Positions 1 through 11,523 are shown, counted from the first letter of the stretch. The stretch: 11,544 nucleotides of DNA from Caldisericota bacterium (GCA_013152825.1 JAADFP010000115.1:1-11544); one strand, 5' to 3'. Notes: generated by a model not told the origin, from the sequence alone. Numbers and translations are program-made.

Positions 1-301
1 CTCCTGCAGTAACATAATATCCCAGGGCTATACAGGCCAGCACTGCTATGCTGGCAAGCTCGGTAAGCTCGAGCTTGCCGGTAAAGAACCCCTTAAACGA
101 ACCCACTATCATGGGAATACCCAGGAGAAGTGCTCCCAGCAAAGCACTTATACCAGAAATCTCCGGACGGTCCGGGAACATGCGCGTGGCTATAAAGGCA
201 TTGAAAATAAGAATTCCCCCGATAAGAGTGAATATGAGACGCCGGACTAATTCCCTTTCTTCTTCATGAGCATGTACTGGATGGTAAAGTTCTTCTTTCA
301 T
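1..301 (-). CDS. Probable P1B-type heavy-metal-translocating P-type ATPase (ZntA/CadA-like), N-terminal ~100 aa only; the gene continues beyond the left edge
   Basis: Hand-translated reverse complement from ATG at 301..299: MKEELYHPVHAHEEERELVRRLIFTLIGGILIFNAFIATRMFPDRPEISGISALLGALLLGIPMIVGSFKGFFTGKLELTELASIAVLACIALGYYVTAG. There is no stop before position 1. Hydrophobic helix pairs and the segment GKLELTELASIAVLACIALGYY resemble the first transmembrane hairpins of Zn/Cd P1B-ATPases. His-rich N-terminus, no HMA domain. The ATG directly abuts the hflK stop (TAA-ATG). It is missing from the supplied ORF track, presumably because it is truncated by the window edge. Confidence 0.45.
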   Translation of the reverse strand, partial: MKEELYHPVHAHEEERELVRRLIFTLIGGILIFNAFIATRMFPDRPEISGISALLGALLLGIPMIVGSFKGFFTGKLELTELASIAVLACIALGYYVTAG

Positions 302-1342
302 TTACTTACTCTCTTTCCATCGTTGTTTCTTTCCCAGGATTATTCTCAATTCATTCTCCTTGCCCGGGAATGGTCTTTTCAGGATGAATTTATTCTGTAA
401 ATTGGCCAGTATTTCTTCTATCTTTTCTTGATAGAAGTAAGCAAGATACACATTAAGCCCCTTAGACCCCTCCCCGAATTTCTGGGTAAGTTTTTCAATA
501 TACTCGGCATCAGCACGTGCTTCATTAACTACTTCGCTGCGGTAGGTATTTGCCTCTCCCACAATCCTCGCCGCTTCTCCCCGTGCAGTATTCACTACCC
601 GGTTGGCATAAGACTTAGCTTCATTTATGCGTGCACTTTTTATCTGCTCGGATTTAATCACTTTGTTAAATGCATCTGCTACCTGGAGAGGCGGAACCGA
701 ACGATCCAGGTACACGGCCACAAGGGTTAAGCCAGAACCCAGCTCGTCAAGAGTCTTCTGTGCCTCGTTTTTGACCATGCGAGAAAAGGTTTCCAGCCGG
801 GTACGCAATGCTTCATCAACCGAGAGTCTTCCTCCTACACGCACTATAGCATTAGAGACCGCGATTTTTATCATGGATTCTTCCTGGCTGGTACGGGTAA
901 GGTACAAAATGGGATCGTCTATCTGGTACTCTATATGCCATAAAGTGTGAATAATATTGTTATCTCCGGTTATCAAATACCCGTGCAACCACGGAATCAG
1001 GAAAGGAGCAGGGGTAACATTCTCCTTGTCTAAATCCGGATCCCAGAATTCCTTCAACTCTATAGACTTAACTTTCTTGACCGGTATACGCACAACTTTA
1101 TCTATAGGCTCGGGAAAAGACCAGTGGAAGCCAGGCTTCAGTACCCTTTCATCTCCAATTCCTTTAATCTTTCCCCAGCGAAGCACTACAGCTACTTCAT
1201 CCTGTTTAACGGTAAAAAAACCCGAGAGCAGATAGGAAATCACCAGAACAGCTACCAGAACCTTAAGGAAATAGAAACTTAACCTGAGAGCACGGGAAAA
1301 GTACTCTAATGCTTGGCTTTGTTCCTTACTTTTTTTCGCCAT
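302..1342 (-). CDS. hflK: HflK-like SPFH/band-7 membrane protein (FtsH protease modulator subunit)
   Basis: ORF 302..1378. One N-terminal TM helix, then an SPFH core (VKQDEVAVVLRWGKIKG...), then an HflK-type C-terminal coiled-coil/tail (ARGEAARIVGEANTYRSE... NVYLAYFYQEKIEEIL). Preferred start is the internal ATG at 1342 (MAKKSKEQ), which has the SD-like GGAGAAAG 6 nt upstream. The ATG at 1378 has a C-rich upstream region with no SD. The gene overlaps the hflC 3' end. Confidence 0.8.
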   Translation of the reverse strand: MAKKSKEQSQALEYFSRALRLSFYFLKVLVAVLVISYLLSGFFTVKQDEVAVVLRWGKIKGIGDERVLKPGFHWSFPEPIDKVVRIPVKKVKSIELKEFWDPDLDKENVTPAPFLIPWLHGYLITGDNNIIHTLWHIEYQIDDPILYLTRTSQEESMIKIAVSNAIVRVGGRLSVDEALRTRLETFSRMVKNEAQKTLDELGSGLTLVAVYLDRSVPPLQVADAFNKVIKSEQIKSARINEAKSYANRVVNTARGEAARIVGEANTYRSEVVNEARADAEYIEKLTQKFGEGSKGLNVYLAYFYQEKIEEILANLQNKFILKRPFPGKENELRIILGKKQRWKESK

Positions 1343-2253
1343 TGTCTTTCTCCAGGTATCCACCCAGGAGTAAATCATAGGGGGGAGTCCGACTATCCAG
1401 GATGATAGTGGAATTACTCTTAAGAGTGTTCTCCAGGGCTTCTAACTTTCTCAGGAAAATTGCCAGGTCCTCATTCTTGCTGAAAATATCGTAGTAGCGT
1501 GCAGCCTCTGCATCGCCTTCCCCTTTGATTCTTTTGGCCTGGGCCCGGGCTTCTGCCAGTATCTTGTCCTTTTCGGCATCTGCCTTCGCCTTTATGTCGC
1601 TGGCCATGCCTTCACCTTCTGCCAGGAATTTCTGGGCTATTCTCTCTCTTTCCTTCCGCATCCTTTCAAACACATCCTGAGTAACCTCCTGGGGAAACTG
1701 TATCCTCTTGAGTACCACTTCCAGGATTTTTATCCCGTATGTTTTCTCCGATTCCGCAGAAGATAATTCCTTAATTTTTTCCTGGATTTCGTCTAATTTA
1801 AGTAATTTCTTATCTATTCTTATCTACATTAATCAGCTGGGAAAGCTCATAAGTACCAATAACCCCGTTTTCATAATTTCTTACCAGGGAAACCAGTTTT
1901 CTCTCTGCTGCATCCTTGCTGCCTACAGAAGTAAAAAACTTGAGTGGTTCCTTTATTTTCCAGAAGGTAGAAGTAATCAAAATTATATTCTTTCCATCGC
2001 GGGTGTAGGTTTCCTCCATCTTACTCTCCAGCACATTAATCCTGCCATCGAAGTGGTACACCTCCTGGATGGGCCAGGGAGCCTTCCAGTAAAGCCCGGG
2101 TTCGTTTATAACCCGCACCGGTTTACCAAAAGTGGTGATCACCGCCATCTTCCCCACCGGCACCTGGAAGGCAATAAGGTATAGAACAAGTATGATGAGC
2201 AGGAACAACCCCAGAGAAAAAGTGTATGGGTTCCAGATTCTTTTTTTACTCAT
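1326..2253 (-). pseudogene. hflC: HflC-like SPFH/band-7 protein, reading frame interrupted by a 10-bp tandem duplication (fragments 1810..2253 and 1326..1718)
   Basis: The N-terminal fragment (TM helix + SPFH core ...NYENGVIGTYELSQLINVDKNR*) and the C-terminal fragment (VLKRIQFPQEVTQDVFERMRKERERIAQKF...GEGDAEAARYYDIFSKNEDLAIFLRKLEALEN) are collinear with HflC. The C-fragment frame stays open upstream to 1823 (…KKLLKLDEIQEKIKELSSAESEKTYGIKILEV-VLKRIQ). Removing one 10-bp repeat copy fuses both frames into a ~311-aa HflC. The start has a strong SD (AAGGAG, 9-nt spacer) and an ATGA overlap with the upstream gene. Confidence 0.75.
1807..1826. repeat. Perfect 10-bp tandem duplication TTCTTATCTA x2 (coding strand TAGATAAGAA x2) that causes the +1 frameshift in hflC
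   Basis: Read directly: 1807-1816 and 1817-1826 are identical. The minus-strand codon phase is ≡1 mod 3 upstream of the duplication and ≡0 mod 3 downstream of it. Confidence 0.9.
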
Positions 2254-4121
2254 TTTTTAATCTCCTTTGTTTCTGTTCCCAGACCTAAGGAAAGAATATC
2301 GGGCAGAGGAGTCTTCTCCAGGTCAAGCACAGTGACATTTCTTTCCCTCTCAGATGAAACCACAATATATTTTCTGGGAGAAAGGAGGCTCCTTTCCAGC
2401 GTTTTCAAATAGTGTCTATATTTGAAAATGCGGGGATTCTTCTGGTAAGCCTGCAATTCCTTTAAAAATTCTTCTCCCCGTGCCTCCGATTCCACAGACC
2501 TGGTCAATCTGTAAGACTCTGCCTGTACTTTTATCCGGGAGGCATCGTAATCCGCCAGGGTAAGCTCCCGGTTTCTGTAAGATTCCGCATCCAGAATATA
2601 TGCTTCCTTTCTTTCCATTGCACCCACAACTTTCTCAAAACTCAATGCCGTCTCCACGGGCGGGTGAACATTCCCCACACTCACCATGACTATCTTTATT
2701 CCCAGATTATGCTTATCTGCTTCTTTTTGAATATTCTCCTTGAGTATATTAGCCAGCGAAAGCCTCTTCACATTCAACACTTCAAAGAAATCGGCGTTCA
2801 TCATCATTCTGGTAAACTGGTTATAGACAAGACTCTCCAGGAGTTTATTCGGTTGAGCCTGGGTATATGCATAATCAAATAGTTTATCAGGGTCAATGCG
2901 ATAGTAAACCCAGACAACACCAGTAAGGAAATTCACCGGCACAGTGGTATAACGGGAAGAAGAAGTAGCTCCTTCCTTGCTGGCAATTATCCAGTTAAAT
3001 TCTTCTTCATAGTGCCTTTCCGTCCAGAGAACTCTTCCCCCTTCTTCGCCACGCACCCCGGCACGGATAGTCTTTATCCGCTCTACATCGTAAATCTTAG
3101 CCTTTCCAATAGGCCAGGGAAACTTGAGATGAATTCCGGGGCCAAAAACTTTCCCCCCTTCTATCGGCTTTCCCAGGAATTCTATGAAAGCTCTTTCATA
3201 GGGTCTCACAATTACCAAAGAAGTTAGTAAGTAAAGCAAGGCAATCTGCAATATAATAAGAGGAATAAGCCGCTTCTTCACAAACTGGTAAAACCAGGTT
3301 TGCGTTATACGAAAGCCAAACTGGTAATCAAGTATCTCCGAGAAAGAAGGGATAACTTCTTCAGGCGTGGAAAGCAGGTATAAAATTCGTGAGTCAAAAG
3401 AAAGCCGTCTCTCTGCCGTGGAAGAACGATAAAAAGAAAGGATAATATTCAGGGCATATTCGAACCCCACCGCGACGAGCAGGATATTAAGCAGATAGAA
3501 GACAAACCATTCTACCTTGGGAAGGCCAAAGTTTCTTAGAGTCAAAGATATAGCCACCAGGAAAGTGAAAAAGGCATTAACTCCCAGGAAGGTCCCGATA
3601 CTGCGCAGGTCATGCCATAACTTCTCCTTGGACATACCCAGGATATAGCGAGAGAACAAGAAAATGAGAAAAGTTAATCCGATTAGTAAAAGAGGAATGG
3701 CCGAATTTGGCTTGTAGAGTGCCCTTTCCCCCCAGAGATAGAGCATTATTCGGAAGGGAACATAAAAGAGAAGGAAGGAAAGTATTAAGGTTATCCCGGG
3801 GATTACCCACTTTTCAGTTTGTCTTAAACGTATACGGGAAATCAGCAGAGTGCTTTCCTCGTCCCTGAACATCCGCCCTTCTTTTTTGGCAAGCTCTTCT
3901 ACTTCCTCCCTTTCCAGTCTTTCTCTATACCTCTGCTGGAAAAGGAGAAAGAGCAGGGTAAAAATGGGGACACCTATTCCAGCATGAAAAGCTTCGGTAA
4001 GGAGAAGAGGAGATTTCACCTGCAAATACATTATGTAGAAGACGAGGGACAAGAAAACCTGGAAGAGGGAAGCTCCCAGGGCTACCTGGAAAGCCCGCCG
4101 CAATTTATCCTTATCTTCCAC
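2250..4121 (-). CDS. Membrane protein with an N-terminal ~6-TM domain fused to a C-terminal SPFH/band-7 HflK-like domain (623 aa)
   Basis: Residues 1-~310 are hydrophobic with ~6-7 predicted helices. Residues ~330-560 form an SPFH core (FIEFLGKPIEGGKVFGPGIHLKFPWPIGKAKIYDVERIKTI...) plus an HflK-type C-terminal region (AESYRNRELTLADYDASRIKVQAESYRLTRSVESEARGEEF...RIFKYRHYLKTLER). GTG start at 4121 is preceded by AAGGAGGT with a 5-nt spacer. It overlaps the permease stop by 11 nt and the hflC start by ATGA. Confidence 0.75.
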   Translation of the reverse strand: MEDKDKLRRAFQVALGASLFQVFLSLVFYIMYLQVKSPLLLTEAFHAGIGVPIFTLLFLLFQQRYRERLEREEVEELAKKEGRMFRDEESTLLISRIRLRQTEKWVIPGITLILSFLLFYVPFRIMLYLWGERALYKPNSAIPLLLIGLTFLIFLFSRYILGMSKEKLWHDLRSIGTFLGVNAFFTFLVAISLTLRNFGLPKVEWFVFYLLNILLVAVGFEYALNIILSFYRSSTAERRLSFDSRILYLLSTPEEVIPSFSEILDYQFGFRITQTWFYQFVKKRLIPLIILQIALLYLLTSLVIVRPYERAFIEFLGKPIEGGKVFGPGIHLKFPWPIGKAKIYDVERIKTIRAGVRGEEGGRVLWTERHYEEEFNWIIASKEGATSSSRYTTVPVNFLTGVVWVYYRIDPDKLFDYAYTQAQPNKLLESLVYNQFTRMMMNADFFEVLNVKRLSLANILKENIQKEADKHNLGIKIVMVSVGNVHPPVETALSFEKVVGAMERKEAYILDAESYRNRELTLADYDASRIKVQAESYRLTRSVESEARGEEFLKELQAYQKNPRIFKYRHYLKTLERSLLSPRKYIVVSSERERNVTVLDLEKTPLPDILSLGLGTETKEIKK

Positions 4122-5064
4122 CGGATACCTCCTTCCTTTCCCAGATACTCCAACCTAAAAAGGTCATACCCAGAGTATAGAAAAACATATATCCCAGCGT
4201 CTTCCACAGGTAATGAAGCGTTATGCCCCCTCCTTTTAACCAGGTTTCTTCACTCCAGAAAATCTGGAAATTGGGGATAAGAGAATATATTATTTTTATT
4301 CCTGGATTGTGCATAAACTTACCTAAAATGTAATCGGAAGTAAGTCCAAGCATAAAAATCAGGAAGGAAAAAGTCAGGGTAAAAAACAACTTTCCCCTCA
4401 GGGAAAACAGAGAAGCCACCGGCGCCATAACTATTCCTGCCATCCATAGAAAAACTGCCGGAAGGAATAAATTCAGCTGCAGTGCACTTTTATCAACGAA
4501 ATAAAGGATCAGGAGAGAAAGGACAAGAGAAACATTCAGCGAGATGACAAAAGCAGAAGCAAAATTTTTATCAGCATAATAATTAGCCCCACCTGCCAGA
4601 ATTACTGCCACCAGCAAAGGTAAAAATTCGAACCAGAGTATAGAATACTTAACTTCACTGTAAGCTGCTTCCGGCACACCCATCTTCAAGGTCATTATAA
4701 GAACGATAACCAGCGGAACGAGCACAAACAGGAGGGAAAGAGCAACCGCGAAAATCTTGGAGATAAGAAAAGTAAAGCGGGATACCGGCTTACTCAAAAG
4801 GAGGGTGCTGGTCTTCTCCTCCATCTCTCCTCCCACAATGGAGAAAATACCCAGCACACTCACTCCCAATTCGGATAAAAGAATAGTAGCCAGCCCCATA
4901 TCCAGAATCAGCTTTTTTGCATGCATTGCATGCATTAGAGTAAACATGGTAAATGCAGGACTGGCCAGGATAAAGAGGTATGCTCCCACGGTAACAAGAG
5001 AAAAAAACGGCTGTCGGATTACATTATAGAACGAAATATGGGCTAATGCAGGAAAAGCTCTCAT
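4111..5064 (-). CDS. ABC-2 family transporter permease (GldF/NosY-like), 6 TM
   Basis: Polytopic hydrophobic protein. The diagnostic ABC-2 loop motif is GGEMEEKTSTLLLSKPVSRFTFLISKIFA (E-x-GT-LLLs-PvsR...K). No ATPase gene is adjacent in the window. Confidence 0.65.
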   Translation of the reverse strand: MRAFPALAHISFYNVIRQPFFSLVTVGAYLFILASPAFTMFTLMHAMHAKKLILDMGLATILLSELGVSVLGIFSIVGGEMEEKTSTLLLSKPVSRFTFLISKIFAVALSLLFVLVPLVIVLIMTLKMGVPEAAYSEVKYSILWFEFLPLLVAVILAGGANYYADKNFASAFVISLNVSLVLSLLILYFVDKSALQLNLFLPAVFLWMAGIVMAPVASLFSLRGKLFFTLTFSFLIFMLGLTSDYILGKFMHNPGIKIIYSLIPNFQIFWSEETWLKGGGITLHYLWKTLGYMFFYTLGMTFLGWSIWERKEVSGGR

Positions 5065-5145: not shown

Positions 5146-5280
5146 CAAGAAATGACTTTTCATATCTGTAATACTATTTCTCCATAATATACCATACCCC
5201 TGTATTGTATGGCAAGGGGGTTGGGAAAGATGGCAAATAGCCCCTGTTCCCGGAGGATGCGGGGAGGACAGACAGGTATG

Positions 5281-5631
5281 ACAGGCGGGCAATCAACCAG
5301 GAATACCAGGATAATAAGAAACCAGGATTACCCATTCACTACTTACTGCTCACCATTTACTTTTTACTGCTTACTAACTCTTCCCTCGCTACTCACTACC
5401 AAGTACTCCCCAGTCTATAGCCTCATTCGGTAACCGGTTGCGGTTGCGCCGCTCGAAACGGTATCCGTTATCCGTCTACCGTCTCCCCCCTCTGTGCCTC
5501 TCTTTCTCCTCCTCGTCATTCCCGCGCAAGCGGGAATCCAGGATTCTGTATCCTGCATCGCCCTTCCCTCACTACTAACTACTATCTACTCACTACTTCC
5601 CCCAGTCTATGGTCTAAAGTCTTTCTATCTC
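5281..5631 (+). repeat. Composite intergenic repeat element, copy A: GGCGGGCAAT/ACCAGGA end, YACT low-complexity tract, TAGACTN-type heptamers. It carries a unique 140-bp GC-richer insert at 5421-5560.
   Basis: 5281-5420 aligns by eye (~85-90 % in the first 60 nt) to the reverse complement of 11440-11523: acaggcgggcaatcaaccaggaataccaggataataagaaaccaggatta vs ataggcgggcaataaaccaggaataccaggatcctaagaaaccaggatta. 5560-5631 (cccttccctcactactaactactatctact...cccccagtctatggtctaaagtcttt) matches RC 11257-11340. The heptamer part overlaps the last ~5 codons and the stop of the oxidoreductase gene. Confidence 0.6.
5518..5555. other. Two adjacent perfect hairpins: ATTCCCGC-GCAA-GCGGGAAT (8 bp, GNRA loop) and CAGGAT-TCTGT-ATCCTG (6 bp)
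   Basis: Inverted repeats read directly within the unique insert of copy A. Neither strand has a following U-tract, so this is not a canonical intrinsic terminator. Confidence 0.45.
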
Positions 5632-8080: not shown

Positions 8081-9435
8081 CTACTTCCCGCAGATCGTCT
8101 CACTTAGAGCAGAATCAATAATCTCTATGCCGGTTTCCAGTTCCTTCCGGCTGATAGAAAGAGGAGGCGCAATTCTCAGCACATTACCGAACATTCCAAT
8201 AGGAGCAATCATTAAGAGTCCACGCTCATACGCTTTCTGCACTACCTTCCTGGCTTTTTCCGGCGAGGGTTTTTTGCTTTTTTTATCCTCTACTATTTCC
8301 AGCCCCCAGACAAGCCCCATTCCCCTCACATCGCCTAAAATACTGTGGCGAGAAAGCAATTCCTGGAAAGATTTATCTAAAAACTCCCCCTCCCTGCCTC
8401 GCATTCTCCACCAGGTTTTCTTCCATAATAATATTTATATTTTCCAGTGCCACCCTGGAGCAAAACGGGTTTCCTCCGTGGGTAGAAGAAAGAGAACCAG
8501 GAGTAAGAATATCCATAATACGCGCTTCTCCTATCAGGGCAGAAAGAGGCACAGAAGAAGTAATCCCTTTTCCCAGGCAAAGCAGGTTGGGAGTAATTCC
8601 GTAGTGCTCAAAACCAAATAACCGCCCGGTTCTTCCAAAAGAAGCCTGCACCTCATCGATAATCAATAAAGCTTCTTTCTCCCCGGCCAGCTTTTCCAGC
8701 TTTTTCATCCATTCCCGGGGAGGAATAATAGAACCTGCCCCCCCCTGGTAAGTCTCAGTTATAAAGGCAGCAATGCGGTTTTCTGACTCGCACGGCAACA
8801 CCCAATCCACAATAAAATCAAAACAGTAGGTTTTGCAGGCAGGATACGTCCGGTCAAAAGGGCAACGGTAACAATAAGGAAAAGGAGCCAGAATTATCCC
8901 GGGCAAAAAAGGCCCAAAACCACGCGTTCCTGCTCCGCTTTTCTTCCCTCCAATGGAAAGCGCTCCGTAAGTTCGTCCGTGAAATGCCCCGTAAAAAGCT
9001 ACTATCTCGTATTTCCCCGTATAAAGGCGGGAAAGTTTTACCGCTGCTTCCGTGGTTTCAGCTCCGGTAGTAAGTAAAAAAGCCTTATCCAGGTTGGGGG
9101 GAGTAATTTCCACCAATTTCCTGGCCAGCTGCAAACGGTATTCCGTGGGAAAATCGTAGCAATTTATCACCCTATCAGCCTGCTCTCTTATAGCTTTTAC
9201 CAGCCTGGGATGGGAATGCCCAATGCCCTACATTTGCCACCAGCACCCCGGAGGAAAAATCCAGGAAAACATTACCTTCCACATCCTCCACATAAACACC
9301 CTGAGCCTTTTCCCAGACTGCCGGCACCTGCTCGCTCATGGAACGAGGTTCATAGGTTTCCTTTAACTTCAGGATCTCTCTCGTTTTCCCACCAGGGAGA
9401 TTCTTGGTCAATTTAATCCCCTCGCTCATGTTCAT
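8081..9435 (-). pseudogene. Class III PLP-dependent aminotransferase (acetylornithine/ornithine/GABA-AT family), interrupted by two frameshifts (fragments 9175..9435, 8373..9170, 8081..8404)
   Basis: N-fragment: ...VFLDFSSGVLVANVGH. The middle-fragment frame stays open upstream as GIGHSHPRLVKAIREQADRV-INCYDF. The middle fragment carries the GRT motif, DEVQASFGRTGRLFGFEHYG and the PLP-lysine context LCLGKGITSSVPLSA. C-fragment: ...LLSRHSILGDVRGMGLVWGLEIV...GNVLRIAPPLSI. Removing one 7-bp repeat copy at 9215-9228 gives ANVGHSHPRLV. Reducing C5 to C4 at 8386-8390 gives ENARQGGEFLDKSFQELLSRH. The likely true start is the ATG at 9429 (SD AAGGAGGT, 6-nt spacer). Confidence 0.75.
9215..9228. repeat. 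Perfect 7-bp tandem duplication AATGCCC x2 (coding strand GGGCATT x2) that causes the first aminotransferase frameshift
   Basis: Read directly: 9215-9221 = 9222-9228. It sits exactly at the conserved GH-SHP motif. Confidence 0.9.
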
Positions 9436-9455: not shown

Positions 9456-11200
9456 TTAAGAAAAAGGCGAATATAAATTGGTTATAGGAAGGCGCCTGTC
9501 CCTTCCAAAAGCACGGGGAGATATTTTTATACCCGGGGGCGCCTGTCGCCTTTTATACTCGTTTCTATCTACCATACGAATAACATCCCTTACAACATCT
9601 TCCTTGTATCCGAGCCCAAGAAGTTCCTGGAAAGAATATTCCTTTTCCACATAGGCCTTAAGAATAGCATCCAGTACCTCGTAAGGAGGAAGGGTATCCT
9701 GGTCCTTCTGCCCCGGCCTTAATTCTGCAGAGGGTGGTTTTTTAATGATATTTTCCGGAATAATTTCCTTACCTTCCCTACAATTAATAAAACGGGCAAC
9801 TCTATATACTTCTGTTTTATATACATCCTTGAGGACAGCAAACCCGCCGGCCATATCTCCGTAAAGCGTAGCATACCCACAGCTCATCTCACTCTTCTTA
9901 TTCCCTGTAGTTAAAACCAGCCAGCCAAACTTATTGGACAAGGCCATCAAAAGATTGCCCCGTATTCTCGCCTGGATATTTTCTTCGGTAACGTCTTCCT
10001 TTAAAGCTTTAAAAACTTCCCTTTTTAGCACCTTACGATAAGCATTAAAAATTTCCTGGATGGGAAGAGTAAAAGTCTTAATCCCCAGGTTTTTAGACAG
10101 GATTTGCGCATCCTCCATGCTGGAAGGAGCATTATACTGAGAAGGCATGATTACTCCTACCACGTTCTCCTCCCCCAGCGCCTCCCTGGCAATACAGGCT
10201 ACCAGGGAAGAATCTATTCCCCCGCTCAACCCCACCAGAACCTTTTCAATTCAAATCCATTCTTCCTGACATAATCCCGGGTGCCCAGCACCAATGCCCG
10301 AAAGATCTCTTCTTCCTGTACAGGAACAGTCTCAATCCTTTTCTCCAGCCTTTTATCTTTATGCTTGCCTTCTCTGCTTATCTCTACCAGTGGAGGAGAG
10401 GGATAATCCAGTTTTTTTGCCCTTCTCCGGGGATCCTGCAGGTGGGAACGTAATACCCTATCCGGCTCCAGGTCTATTGTGACCAGGTCTTCCTGGAATA
10501 TCTTTGCCCTCACCATCAGATAGCCTTTTTCGTCAAACACCAGGCTCCCGCCGTCGAAAACGAGTTCATCCTGCCCCCCTACCATGTTTACATACGCCAC
10601 TATCGCCCCACACTCCTGCGCGCGCGTAGAAAGCATCTTTTCCCGTAATTCGCGTTTACCCACATGGAAAGGTGAAGCAGAAATATTGACAAGCACCTGG
10701 GCTTCTCCCCCTATTGCCTGGTTGAGATGCGGTCCTTCTGGATACCATATATCCTCGCAGATGCTCACTCCTACTCGGGTACCATTAATCAGGAAAACCG
10801 GTGTCTCCCGGCCTCTCTGAAAATACCTGTACTCATCAAACACCCCGTAATTTGGCAGAAAAATCTTACGATATACTCCCCTGACTTCCCCTTCTGAAAT
10901 TACTGCAAGCGCATTGAATATGTCATCTTCCACCTCTACAAACCCCACCACGGCCACTATTCCCCTGACCTCCCCGGCCAGAGAATTCAATGCCTCCATA
11001 TTCTCCTGCAAGAATTGCGGCTTGAGTAAAAGATCCTCCGGAGGATAACCGGTGAGAGCAAGTTCGGGGAATATCACAATATCTGATTCCCGGGCGTGTG
11101 CTTTTTCTATAAAGCTAAGGATTTTATCTGAATTGCCCTTTAAATCTCCCACAGTGGAATTTATTTGCGCCAGGGACACACGCAACAAATTTCTTTCCAT
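9456..11200 (-). pseudogene. nadE: Glutamine-dependent NAD+ synthetase NadE (N-terminal CN-hydrolase/nitrilase domain + C-terminal NAD synthetase domain), split by a -1 frameshift in an A4 run (fragments 10226..11200 and 9456..10235)
   Basis: Fragment 1 has the carbon-nitrogen hydrolase fold (IVIFPELALTGYPPEDLL...SICEDIWYPEG) and runs into the synthetase-domain start ([22 protein letters not shown]). Fragment 2 begins GLSGGIDSS (P-loop) and contains [21 protein letters not shown]. With five A's instead of four at coding AAAAGG (plus T4 at 10243-10246) the protein reads ...[20 protein letters not shown]. Confidence 0.8.
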
Positions 11201-11256
11201 ACCCCAAGTTTATCTCAAAAAGGTAAAAAATTCAAAAAAAACCCCGGGGGAGAGGT

Positions 11257-11298
11257 TAGAATTTAGACTTAAGACTATAGACGTTAGACTATAGACTG
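11257..11298. repeat. 7-bp tandem repeat (TAGAATT)-TAGACTT-AAGACTA-TAGACGT-TAGACTA-TAGACTG, 5-6 copies
   Basis: Read directly. The same heptamer family (as complement AGTCTAT/GGTCTAA/AGTCTTT) occurs at 5604-5631. Confidence 0.7.
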
Positions 11299-11523
11299 GG
11301 GAGTAGTTGGTAGCGAGTAGATAGTAGTGAGAGGAGAATTAGTTACTGGTTTTGGGTTGGTAGGTGCAAAATGCAAAATCCAGGGACAGTTTTCCCTATC
11401 TACTAACTACTGTCTACTATCTACTGAGATAGTAGCGAGGGAAGGGTAGTGAGCAGTGAATAGATAATCCTGGTTTCTTAGGATCCTGGTATTCCTGGTT
11501 TATTGCCCGCCTATCCCAACCCC
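11257..11523 (-). repeat. Composite intergenic repeat element, copy B, inverted relative to copy A
   Basis: The reverse complement of 11440-11523 matches 5281-5360. RC of 11257-11340 matches 5560-5631. The outer GGCGGGCAAT ends of A and B face away from each other across ~6.2 kb, and each is flanked on the outside by a short GC hairpin (CCCAAC...GTTGGG at 11514-11537). Confidence 0.6.

Follow-up and report, generated by a model that had tools for sequence, protein, structure and literature searches.

Cryo-electron microscopy since 2022 has established that HflK/C, flotillin, prohibitin, stomatin and erlin form membrane-capping cages, and the contents and purpose of SPFH cages are largely open. 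The locus considered here lies in an 11,544-nt stretch of DNA from a Caldisericota bacterium (GCA_013152825.1, JAADFP010000115.1:1-11544), the whole of which is referred to below as the window. Open reading frame (ORF) calls over its full length placed in it five tightly packed genes, all on the minus strand: an ABC-2-type permease (g1), a polytopic membrane domain fused to an HflK-like SPFH domain (g2), an HflC orthologue (g3), an HflK orthologue (g4) and the beginning of a P1B-type ATPase (g5). These genes are the 5' part of an eight-gene cluster, which relatives continue past g5 with g6, g7 and g8. On a narrow balance of probability, this conserved eight-gene operon encodes a dedicated heteromeric SPFH cage by which a metal pump is organised together with an ABC-2 machine.

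Among solved structures, the SPFH proteins are closest to HflK and HflC of E. coli as seen in complexes with FtsH (PDB 7vhp/7vhq, 7wi3 and 9cz2). The likeness extends to g3 and g4, which are HflC and HflK by curated cutoffs, to the C-terminal half of g2, in which an SPFH domain is combined with a long coiled coil and C-terminal strands, and to the predicted periplasmic position of the SPFH domains, the N-terminal anchor helix and the adjacent, overlapping genes. Unlike the E. coli system, the locus encodes three paralogues in the order K'-C-K, one of which (g2) carries a conserved 300-aa domain of six transmembrane (TM) helices, and the neighbours conserved with it encode a P1B-ATPase and an ABC-2 transporter in place of hflX or ftsH. 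The transporter genes recall NosDFY(L) (PDB 7o0y), the machine for maturation of the copper centre of N2O reductase: the g1 profile matches its NosY chain (7o0y_D, E 5.4e-5), a PF12679-type permease is encoded together with a separate ATPase, and the genomic setting is metal-related. The cluster differs in lacking a NosD-like beta-helix protein, NosL and a nosZ context, in its two permease genes (g1 and g7), which imply a heterodimer and of which g7 has its own extracytoplasmic insert, and in g8, which is unrelated to any Nos protein. In SPFH-NfeD pairs (QmcA-YbbJ, PDB 8z5g; stomatin-STOPP), too, one operon encodes an SPFH cage and the membrane partner dedicated to it; unlike them, the present cluster has no NfeD gene, its SPFH proteins belong to the HflK/C branch and its partners are primary transporters. 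The nearest functional precedent may be the PacL-CtpC/CtpG/CtpV metal efflux platforms (effluxosomes) of M. tuberculosis, in which a scaffold clusters and stabilises a P1B-ATPase; the mycobacterial PacL scaffolds are small DUF1490 proteins, and their foci form independently of the flotillin homologue (PMC9374683, PMC13043812). By analogy, both arrangements would pair a P1B-ATPase with a membrane scaffold in a small operon, with the difference that PacL is not an SPFH protein and no ABC transporter is involved.

A preliminary description, made from the sequence of the window, had reported three SPFH genes in a row, and Pfam bore this out: Band_7/SPFH (PF01145, cutoff 23.6 bits) was matched at residues 304-513 of g2 (48 bits), in the N-terminal half of g3 (62 bits) and in g4 (84 bits). 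On the NCBIfam hflK model TIGR01933, g4 passed the cutoff (164.4 bits vs 159.4) and g2 stayed under it (110.6 bits); at the level of sequence profiles g2 is HflK-like, yet not an HflK equivalog. The two ORFs of the broken g3 cover complementary parts of the hflC profile (ORF 1810-2253 spans positions 9-144 and ORF 1326-1718 positions 200-309), and an intact orthologue reached 161.9 bits on the HflC model TIGR01932 (cutoff 134.4). The best matches in PDB were E. coli HflC for g3 and E. coli HflK for g4 (E 1e-24), and the top Foldseek matches of g2 were HflK/HflC chains (7vhq_E and 9cz2_XA, E 1e-13 to 1e-14). In the AlphaFold2 model of g2, helices are predicted at residues 489-561 (a coiled coil of about 73 residues) and 563-580, and strands at 584-588 and 596-600; as modelled, the coiled coil and C-terminal strands are the elements that HflK/C use for cage building. 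Within the window the three proteins share 23-27% pairwise identity, and margins of at least 78 bits separate the positional hidden Markov models (HMMs); judged by these comparisons, g2, g3 and g4 are three separate old SPFH orthologous groups, and because the groups are well separated the three-paralogue arrangement is itself taken to be old. Hydropathy gave one hydrophobic segment each for g3 and g4 and, in agreement with the AlphaFold2 model, seven TM helices for g2. Given that the N-termini are positive-inside in charge distribution, and that g2 has an odd number of TM helices while g3 and g4 have a single one, all three SPFH domains are predicted to face the periplasm.

The 623-aa product of g2 had been described as a polytopic domain of about 300 aa in front of an HflK-like SPFH domain, and hydropathy and AlphaFold2 confirmed this architecture (mean pLDDT 84 over the full length and 83 for residues 1-300). 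Hydropathy and two AlphaFold2 models agree on six TM helices in the N-domain, followed by a seventh that is the usual HflK anchor. A long, highly charged cytoplasmic helix (residues 62-103) lies between TM2 and TM3, and homologue alignments revealed an invariant glutamate in TM6 (E221) and a near-invariant cytoplasmic juxtamembrane motif, D265-Y-Q-F-G-F270 ... T275-W-F-Y278 (DYQFGF..TWFY). The fusion is a genuine single gene and no misprediction: full-length homologues, of 620-690 aa, number more than 360, and the N-domain is nearly always N-terminal in the proteins that contain it. A search with the N-domain only against 1.84 billion representative proteins returned 752 clusters at 50% identity, nearly all of them proteins of 620-870 aa that begin with the domain, and the domain appears, from this distribution, not to exist as a stand-alone protein. 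The possibility raised at the outset that such fusions are common and already annotated held by half, in that the fusion is common and the databases name its homologues automatically, as 'protease modulator HflK' or 'SPFH domain-containing protein'. That the fusion is not a characterised family was upheld by literature searches, in which no characterising paper was found.

No Pfam family matched the N-domain. By two methods its predicted fold is nearest to CDF metal transporters; the top nine Foldseek matches were all YiiP/ZnT chains, with a best E of only 4.7e-3 and a TM-score of about 0.5. A profile of the domain compared with PDB sequences gave no CDF match. Because the fold matches are weak and a sequence-level CDF signal is lacking, the domain is described as CDF-like in predicted fold and is not filed as CDF; membership in that family was rejected for want of a PF01545 or PDB-profile match and of the metal-site residues. 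Compared with YiiP and ZnT/SLC30, g2 also lacks the CDF C-terminal domain, and its invariant residues are elsewhere, at E221 and in DYQFGF..TWFY. The only match with E below 0.001 was a marginal one (E 7.7e-4) to the yeast V-ATPase assembly factor Vph2, which spans the charged helix and one TM helix and was judged compositional.

The distribution of the cluster was assessed with custom HMMs for positions g1 to g8, run on 86 loci; counts were restricted to loci with enough sequence, and those for g1 and g3 were set by hand from the per-locus listing. An identical eight-gene order was found in the closest relative (L001) and in L003-L006, with g2 homologue identities of 90%, 65%, 59% and about 31%. 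The order is maintained across phyla (Omnitrophota-like, Calescamantes, Planctomycetota and Verrucomicrobiota) at protein identities as low as about 30%. With each species represented by a single genome, g2 was found in at least 599 genomes, among them Planctomycetota (Pirellulales, Phycisphaerae, Sedimentisphaerales and Brocadiia), Verrucomicrobiota (including an Akkermansia sp., Pedosphaera and Limisphaerales), Omnitrophota and Calescamantes. Cluster genes were present as follows: g1 in 70/70 loci, g3 in all, g4 in 72/73, g5 in 63/66, g6 in 58/61, g7 in 54/58 and g8 in 47/51. One Brocadiia metagenome-assembled genome (L015) has g1 to g3 only, within 10 kb. Recurrent flanking genes (UvrD, GNAT, FabA/Z, KAS and plsX/fabH) were judged to be lineage synteny and not parts of the system.

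The best explanation of this gene order is that g1 to g8 form one conserved operon, of which g1 to g5 fall within the window; judged by gene order, at least four phyla share the three-paralogue SPFH set and the two transporters. An operon linking an SPFH scaffold to transporters had been suggested from the window, and the operon stands, on an order kept at about 30% identity, while the scaffold function is something that we infer. Full-text searches found no description of the eight-gene cluster or of a long polytopic SPFH/HflK protein, and a search by terms within a survey of the SPFH families of prokaryotes from 2009 (PMC2636767) met with no passage or subfamily that matches g2. All parts of the cluster belong to known superfamilies, apart from g8, which has no family match; what is new is the third, domain-fused subunit of HflK/C type and its operon-encoded transporter partners.

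The first of these partners is the ABC-2 transporter. The g1 protein had no Pfam or NCBIfam match of its own, and an orthologue (in L006) had only a precomputed PF12679 match labelled 'weak'. A profile of 36 g1 orthologues could be aligned from one end to the other with that of g7 (hhalign probability 99.2%, E 1.3e-19), and g7, a protein of about 450 aa that differs from g1 by an extracytoplasmic insert of about 140 residues, passed PF12679 (ABC2_membrane_2) with 37.2 bits (cutoff 27.2). The identification of g1 as a permease in the preliminary description was thus upheld by profile comparison and not by a direct family match; on that basis g1 is of the ABC-2 type and g1 and g7 are paralogues. 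The same description had called the permease an orphan, which is refuted by the ATPase g6 and the paralogue g7 past the window edge. The g6 product is an ABC ATPase (PF00005) of the DrrA/GldA/NodI type, with LptB-like scores too; in relatives this cognate ATPase lies just beyond the position at which the window ends. The simplest reading of these profiles is a g1/g7 heterodimeric permease powered by a pair of g6 subunits. The last gene, g8 (L001:16023-17585 and orthologues), encodes a well-conserved protein of about 500-590 aa, which has a single TM helix near its N-terminus and in which many Trp, Asn and Tyr residues are invariant. The protein had no match in Pfam, NCBIfam or PADLOC, and its profile gave only noise against PDB sequences (E at least 0.7); g8 looks like an undescribed family tied to the cluster. 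In the closest relative, a PMT_2 (ArnT-like) glycosyltransferase gene and a GT2 gene lie between g7 and g8 (L001:13873-16026), and a PMT_2 gene lies 3' of g8 in a distant planctomycete-type locus (L005:20209-21813).

The second partner is the pump. The 100 codons of g5 inside the window had no match in Pfam or NCBIfam by themselves, and the preliminary assignment to the P1B-ATPases rests on the closest relative, in which 99/100 of these residues are identical to the N-terminus of a 621-aa P1B-ATPase (L001:9844-11709). That orthologue scored 526 bits on TIGR01525 (cutoff 346) and resembles structures of CopA and of the P1B-4 pump sCoaT about equally. DKTGT, TGES and GDGxNDxP are each kept unchanged by 63-64 of the 64 orthologues, TM4 carries CPC in 54/64, and a histidine in TM6, at the position that governs specificity, is conserved in 61/64. 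At that TM6 position we take Cu(I) pumps (CopA) to have Met, Zn pumps (ZntA) Asp and P1B-4 pumps His. Family searches with the L001 orthologue found no HMA domain; the N-terminus of g5 is rich in histidine (HPVHAHEEE) and may replace the missing domain.

Taken as one assembly, g2, g3 and g4 would co-assemble into a heteromeric ring or vault of the HflK/C type on the periplasmic face. The membrane patch that it encloses may hold the P1B pump and a g1/g7/(g6)2 ABC-2 machine, with the g7 insert and the periplasmic part of g8 sitting under the dome. The N-domain of g2, with DYQFGF..TWFY, might tether the client, or the N-domain might conduct or sense an ion. The P1B pump, in combination with the NosY-like permeases and the CDF-like domain, suggests that a transition metal is exported and handed over. 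The most likely role, and the weakest step of the proposal, is that the assembly confines or organises this export and hand-over, or stabilises the transporters, rather than exerting general control of FtsH. A more specific version, which we regard as possible but unlikely, is that a heteromeric SPFH vault, common in the PVC group and allied phyla, surrounds two primary transporters, the P1B pump and, with g8 as its periplasmic partner, a heterodimeric ABC-2 machine resembling NosFY, and forms a closed periplasmic nano-compartment for metal or other exported cargo, and that g2 contributes a CDF-derived transporter or ion-sensing domain to the cage wall.

Several observations weigh against a cage dedicated to metal transporters. 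In the clade of the window (8/64 orthologues) TM4 of g5 reads VPC, which makes the metal specificity, and even metal transport, uncertain. The CDF resemblance of the g2 N-domain is structural only, with a sequence identity of about 9-15%; PF01545 was matched by 0/22 N-domain members, and in homologue alignments the CDF site-A and TM2-TM5 metal-site residues are not conserved and there are no D/HxxxD pairs. Linkage is also incomplete: in most Planctomycetota g1 and g2 are transcribed in opposite directions, and their translational coupling is not universal, two loci (L075 and L085) are without the P1B-ATPase, and a few, among them L051 and L057, have no g6 to g8 nearby. Finally, synteny might reflect co-regulation only, and g3 and g4, which exceed the HflC and HflK equivalog cutoffs, could merely be the FtsH modulators of the host.

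This last point leads to the rival that survives best, in which g3 and g4 are ordinary HflK/C regulators of FtsH, g2 is an accessory paralogue, and the transporters are neighbours, co-regulated genes or at most FtsH substrates. The curated equivalog scores of g4 and of the intact g3 orthologue speak for it, as does the origin of the closest solved structures in FtsH complexes. We nevertheless hold it to be unlikely, for synteny with g1 and g5 to g8 persists across phyla at about 30% identity, which would be unusual for unrelated neighbours; neither ftsH nor hflX was among the called or recurrent neighbour genes of the loci examined (whole genomes lay outside this scope); the order is K'-C-K where the canonical one is K-C; and canonical HflK has no counterpart of the conserved 300-aa membrane domain of g2.

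A further rival is a role in envelope biogenesis or in the export of lipid or glycolipid: the heterodimeric ABC-2 transporter and g8 would move a substrate that is hydrophobic or linked to a lipid, a lipid domain would be organised by the SPFH proteins, and the P-type ATPase would be auxiliary. ABC-2 ATPases of the DrrA, NodI, GldA and LptB-like kinds often serve lipid or glycan exporters, the glycosyltransferase genes between g7 and g8 of L001 and after g8 of L005 could be read in the same sense, and in several lineages the cluster is bordered by genes of fatty-acid synthesis. Neither these genes nor those of the glycosyltransferases are consistently present, however, and the conserved P1B pump, the NosY-like g1 and the CDF-like domain favour metals; lipid export is accordingly judged quite improbable.

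That the locus is an artefact or dying, with a mis-joined fusion or a module pseudogenised in the source organism, draws on the frameshift in hflC and on the three other insertions of the contig that shift the frame (nadE has one of them and an aminotransferase gene has two), and we give it almost no credence: the fusion is full-length in its homologues and recurs in the 752 clusters, hflC, nadE and the aminotransferase gene are all intact in close relatives, the lesions are scattered over the contig and not specific to the module, and both hflC halves are about 96% identical to the orthologue in protein vs about 87% DNA identity between the contigs.

The frameshift of hflC noted in the preliminary description is real. 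It is due to a perfect 10-nt tandem duplication (TAGATAAGAA twice, window 1807-1826), and removal of one copy gives a 305-aa protein with 293/305 residues identical to the orthologue in L001. An in-frame 9-nt tandem duplication in g1 (ATGCATGCA twice, window 4917-4936) adds MHA with respect to relatives. Outside the module, the glutamine-dependent NAD synthetase gene nadE (9456-11200), a single 573-aa gene in the relative L002, is split into CN_hydrolase and NAD_synthase ORFs by a 5-nt duplication (TTGAA twice, window 10250-10256), and the class-III aminotransferase region (8081-9435), a single 447-aa gene in L002, is broken into three ORFs by a 7-nt duplication (GGGCATT twice, 9213-9221) and an extra G at 8386. 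Four frameshifting insertions thus hit three conserved genes within 11.5 kb. Throughout the window, every multi-base insertion relative to the 87%-identical relative is a perfect short tandem duplication, and the 9-10-nt duplications are far beyond chance. The insertions are a property of the contig, reflecting either assembly or sequence quality or a slippage-prone lineage. The suggestion that the module is decaying was dropped, as the lesions are contig-wide, the relatives are intact and HflC can be repaired.

The gene junctions had been given as an 11-nt overlap, ATGA and TAAATG, and all three can be read from the sequence. The overlap of g1 and g2 is GTGGAAGATAA, with a GGAGG ribosome-binding site upstream; g2 and g3 overlap by the 4 nt ATGA; and the stop codon of g4 and the start codon of g5 are fused as TAAATG, with a 0-nt spacer. 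The longest ORF of g4 begins at 1378, and homologues, including that of L001, favour a start at 1342 (MAKKSKEQ), with which g3 and g4 overlap by 17 nt. A GFO/IDH/MocA oxidoreductase gene (6690-5614, minus strand) sits 5' of g1 across a gap of about 550 nt. Coordinates of the features are collected in the table.

Table. Positions of the cluster genes and associated features in the window, with the basis of each assignment.
Feature	Position	Strand	Basis
g1, 317-aa polytopic ABC-2-type (NosY-like) permease, first cluster gene	4111..5064	-	ORF
g2, whole gene, 623 aa	2250..4121	-	ORF
g2 N-domain, residues 1-300, six TM helices (predicted)	3222..4121	-	hydropathy and AlphaFold2
g2 C-terminal half, residues 301-623, HflK-like SPFH	2250..3221	-	PF01145, Foldseek
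g3, HflC orthologue, broken by +10-nt frameshift	1326..2253	-	HflC profile, repaired product
10-nt tandem duplication breaking hflC	1807..1826		minus-strand TAGATAAGAA x2
g4, HflK orthologue, 346 aa	302..1342	-	TIGR01933; start by homology
g5, first 100 codons of P1B-type ATPase, exits window	1..301	-	translation and relative L001
Weak sigma-70-like promoter match, TTGCCA / 18-nt spacer / TATATT	5186..5215	-	not above chance

A promoter and terminator scan upstream of g1 gave 2 promoter sites vs 1.3 expected, with no excess over shuffled sequence. An Rfam scan of the whole window (E up to 1) returned two sub-threshold chance matches only, and no RNA element is therefore considered to be involved. 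PADLOC defence models had zero matches among g1 to g4, g7 and g8, and a known defence system was rejected on these proteins. About 400 nt upstream of g1 (window 5220-5626) have no counterpart in a close relative and no Rfam match; the segment holds 21-nt and 7-nt tandem repeats (5332-5371 and 5571-5597) and small ORFs, three of which had no Pfam match. At the end of the contig, upstream of nadE, degenerate 7- and 14-nt tandem repeats of the TAGACTA and CTATCTA types (window 11251-11425) are accompanied by a local reversal of GC skew.

For annotation, the consequence is that proteins of 620-690 aa now named automatically 'protease modulator HflK' are a distinct family, which corrects a routine mis-annotation. 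For the SPFH proteins in general, the cluster is a natural test case for what their cages enclose and makes that question directly testable. Should its products form one assembly, client-specific SPFH cages would be identified in bacteria, and a compartmentalised step of metal handling or export would be placed in Planctomycetota, Verrucomicrobiota (including Akkermansia-related genomes) and Omnitrophota. Should the vault enclose the transporters as outlined above, it would be the first SPFH cage with clients defined by its own operon, and g2 the first SPFH subunit to have a transport-type domain of its own.

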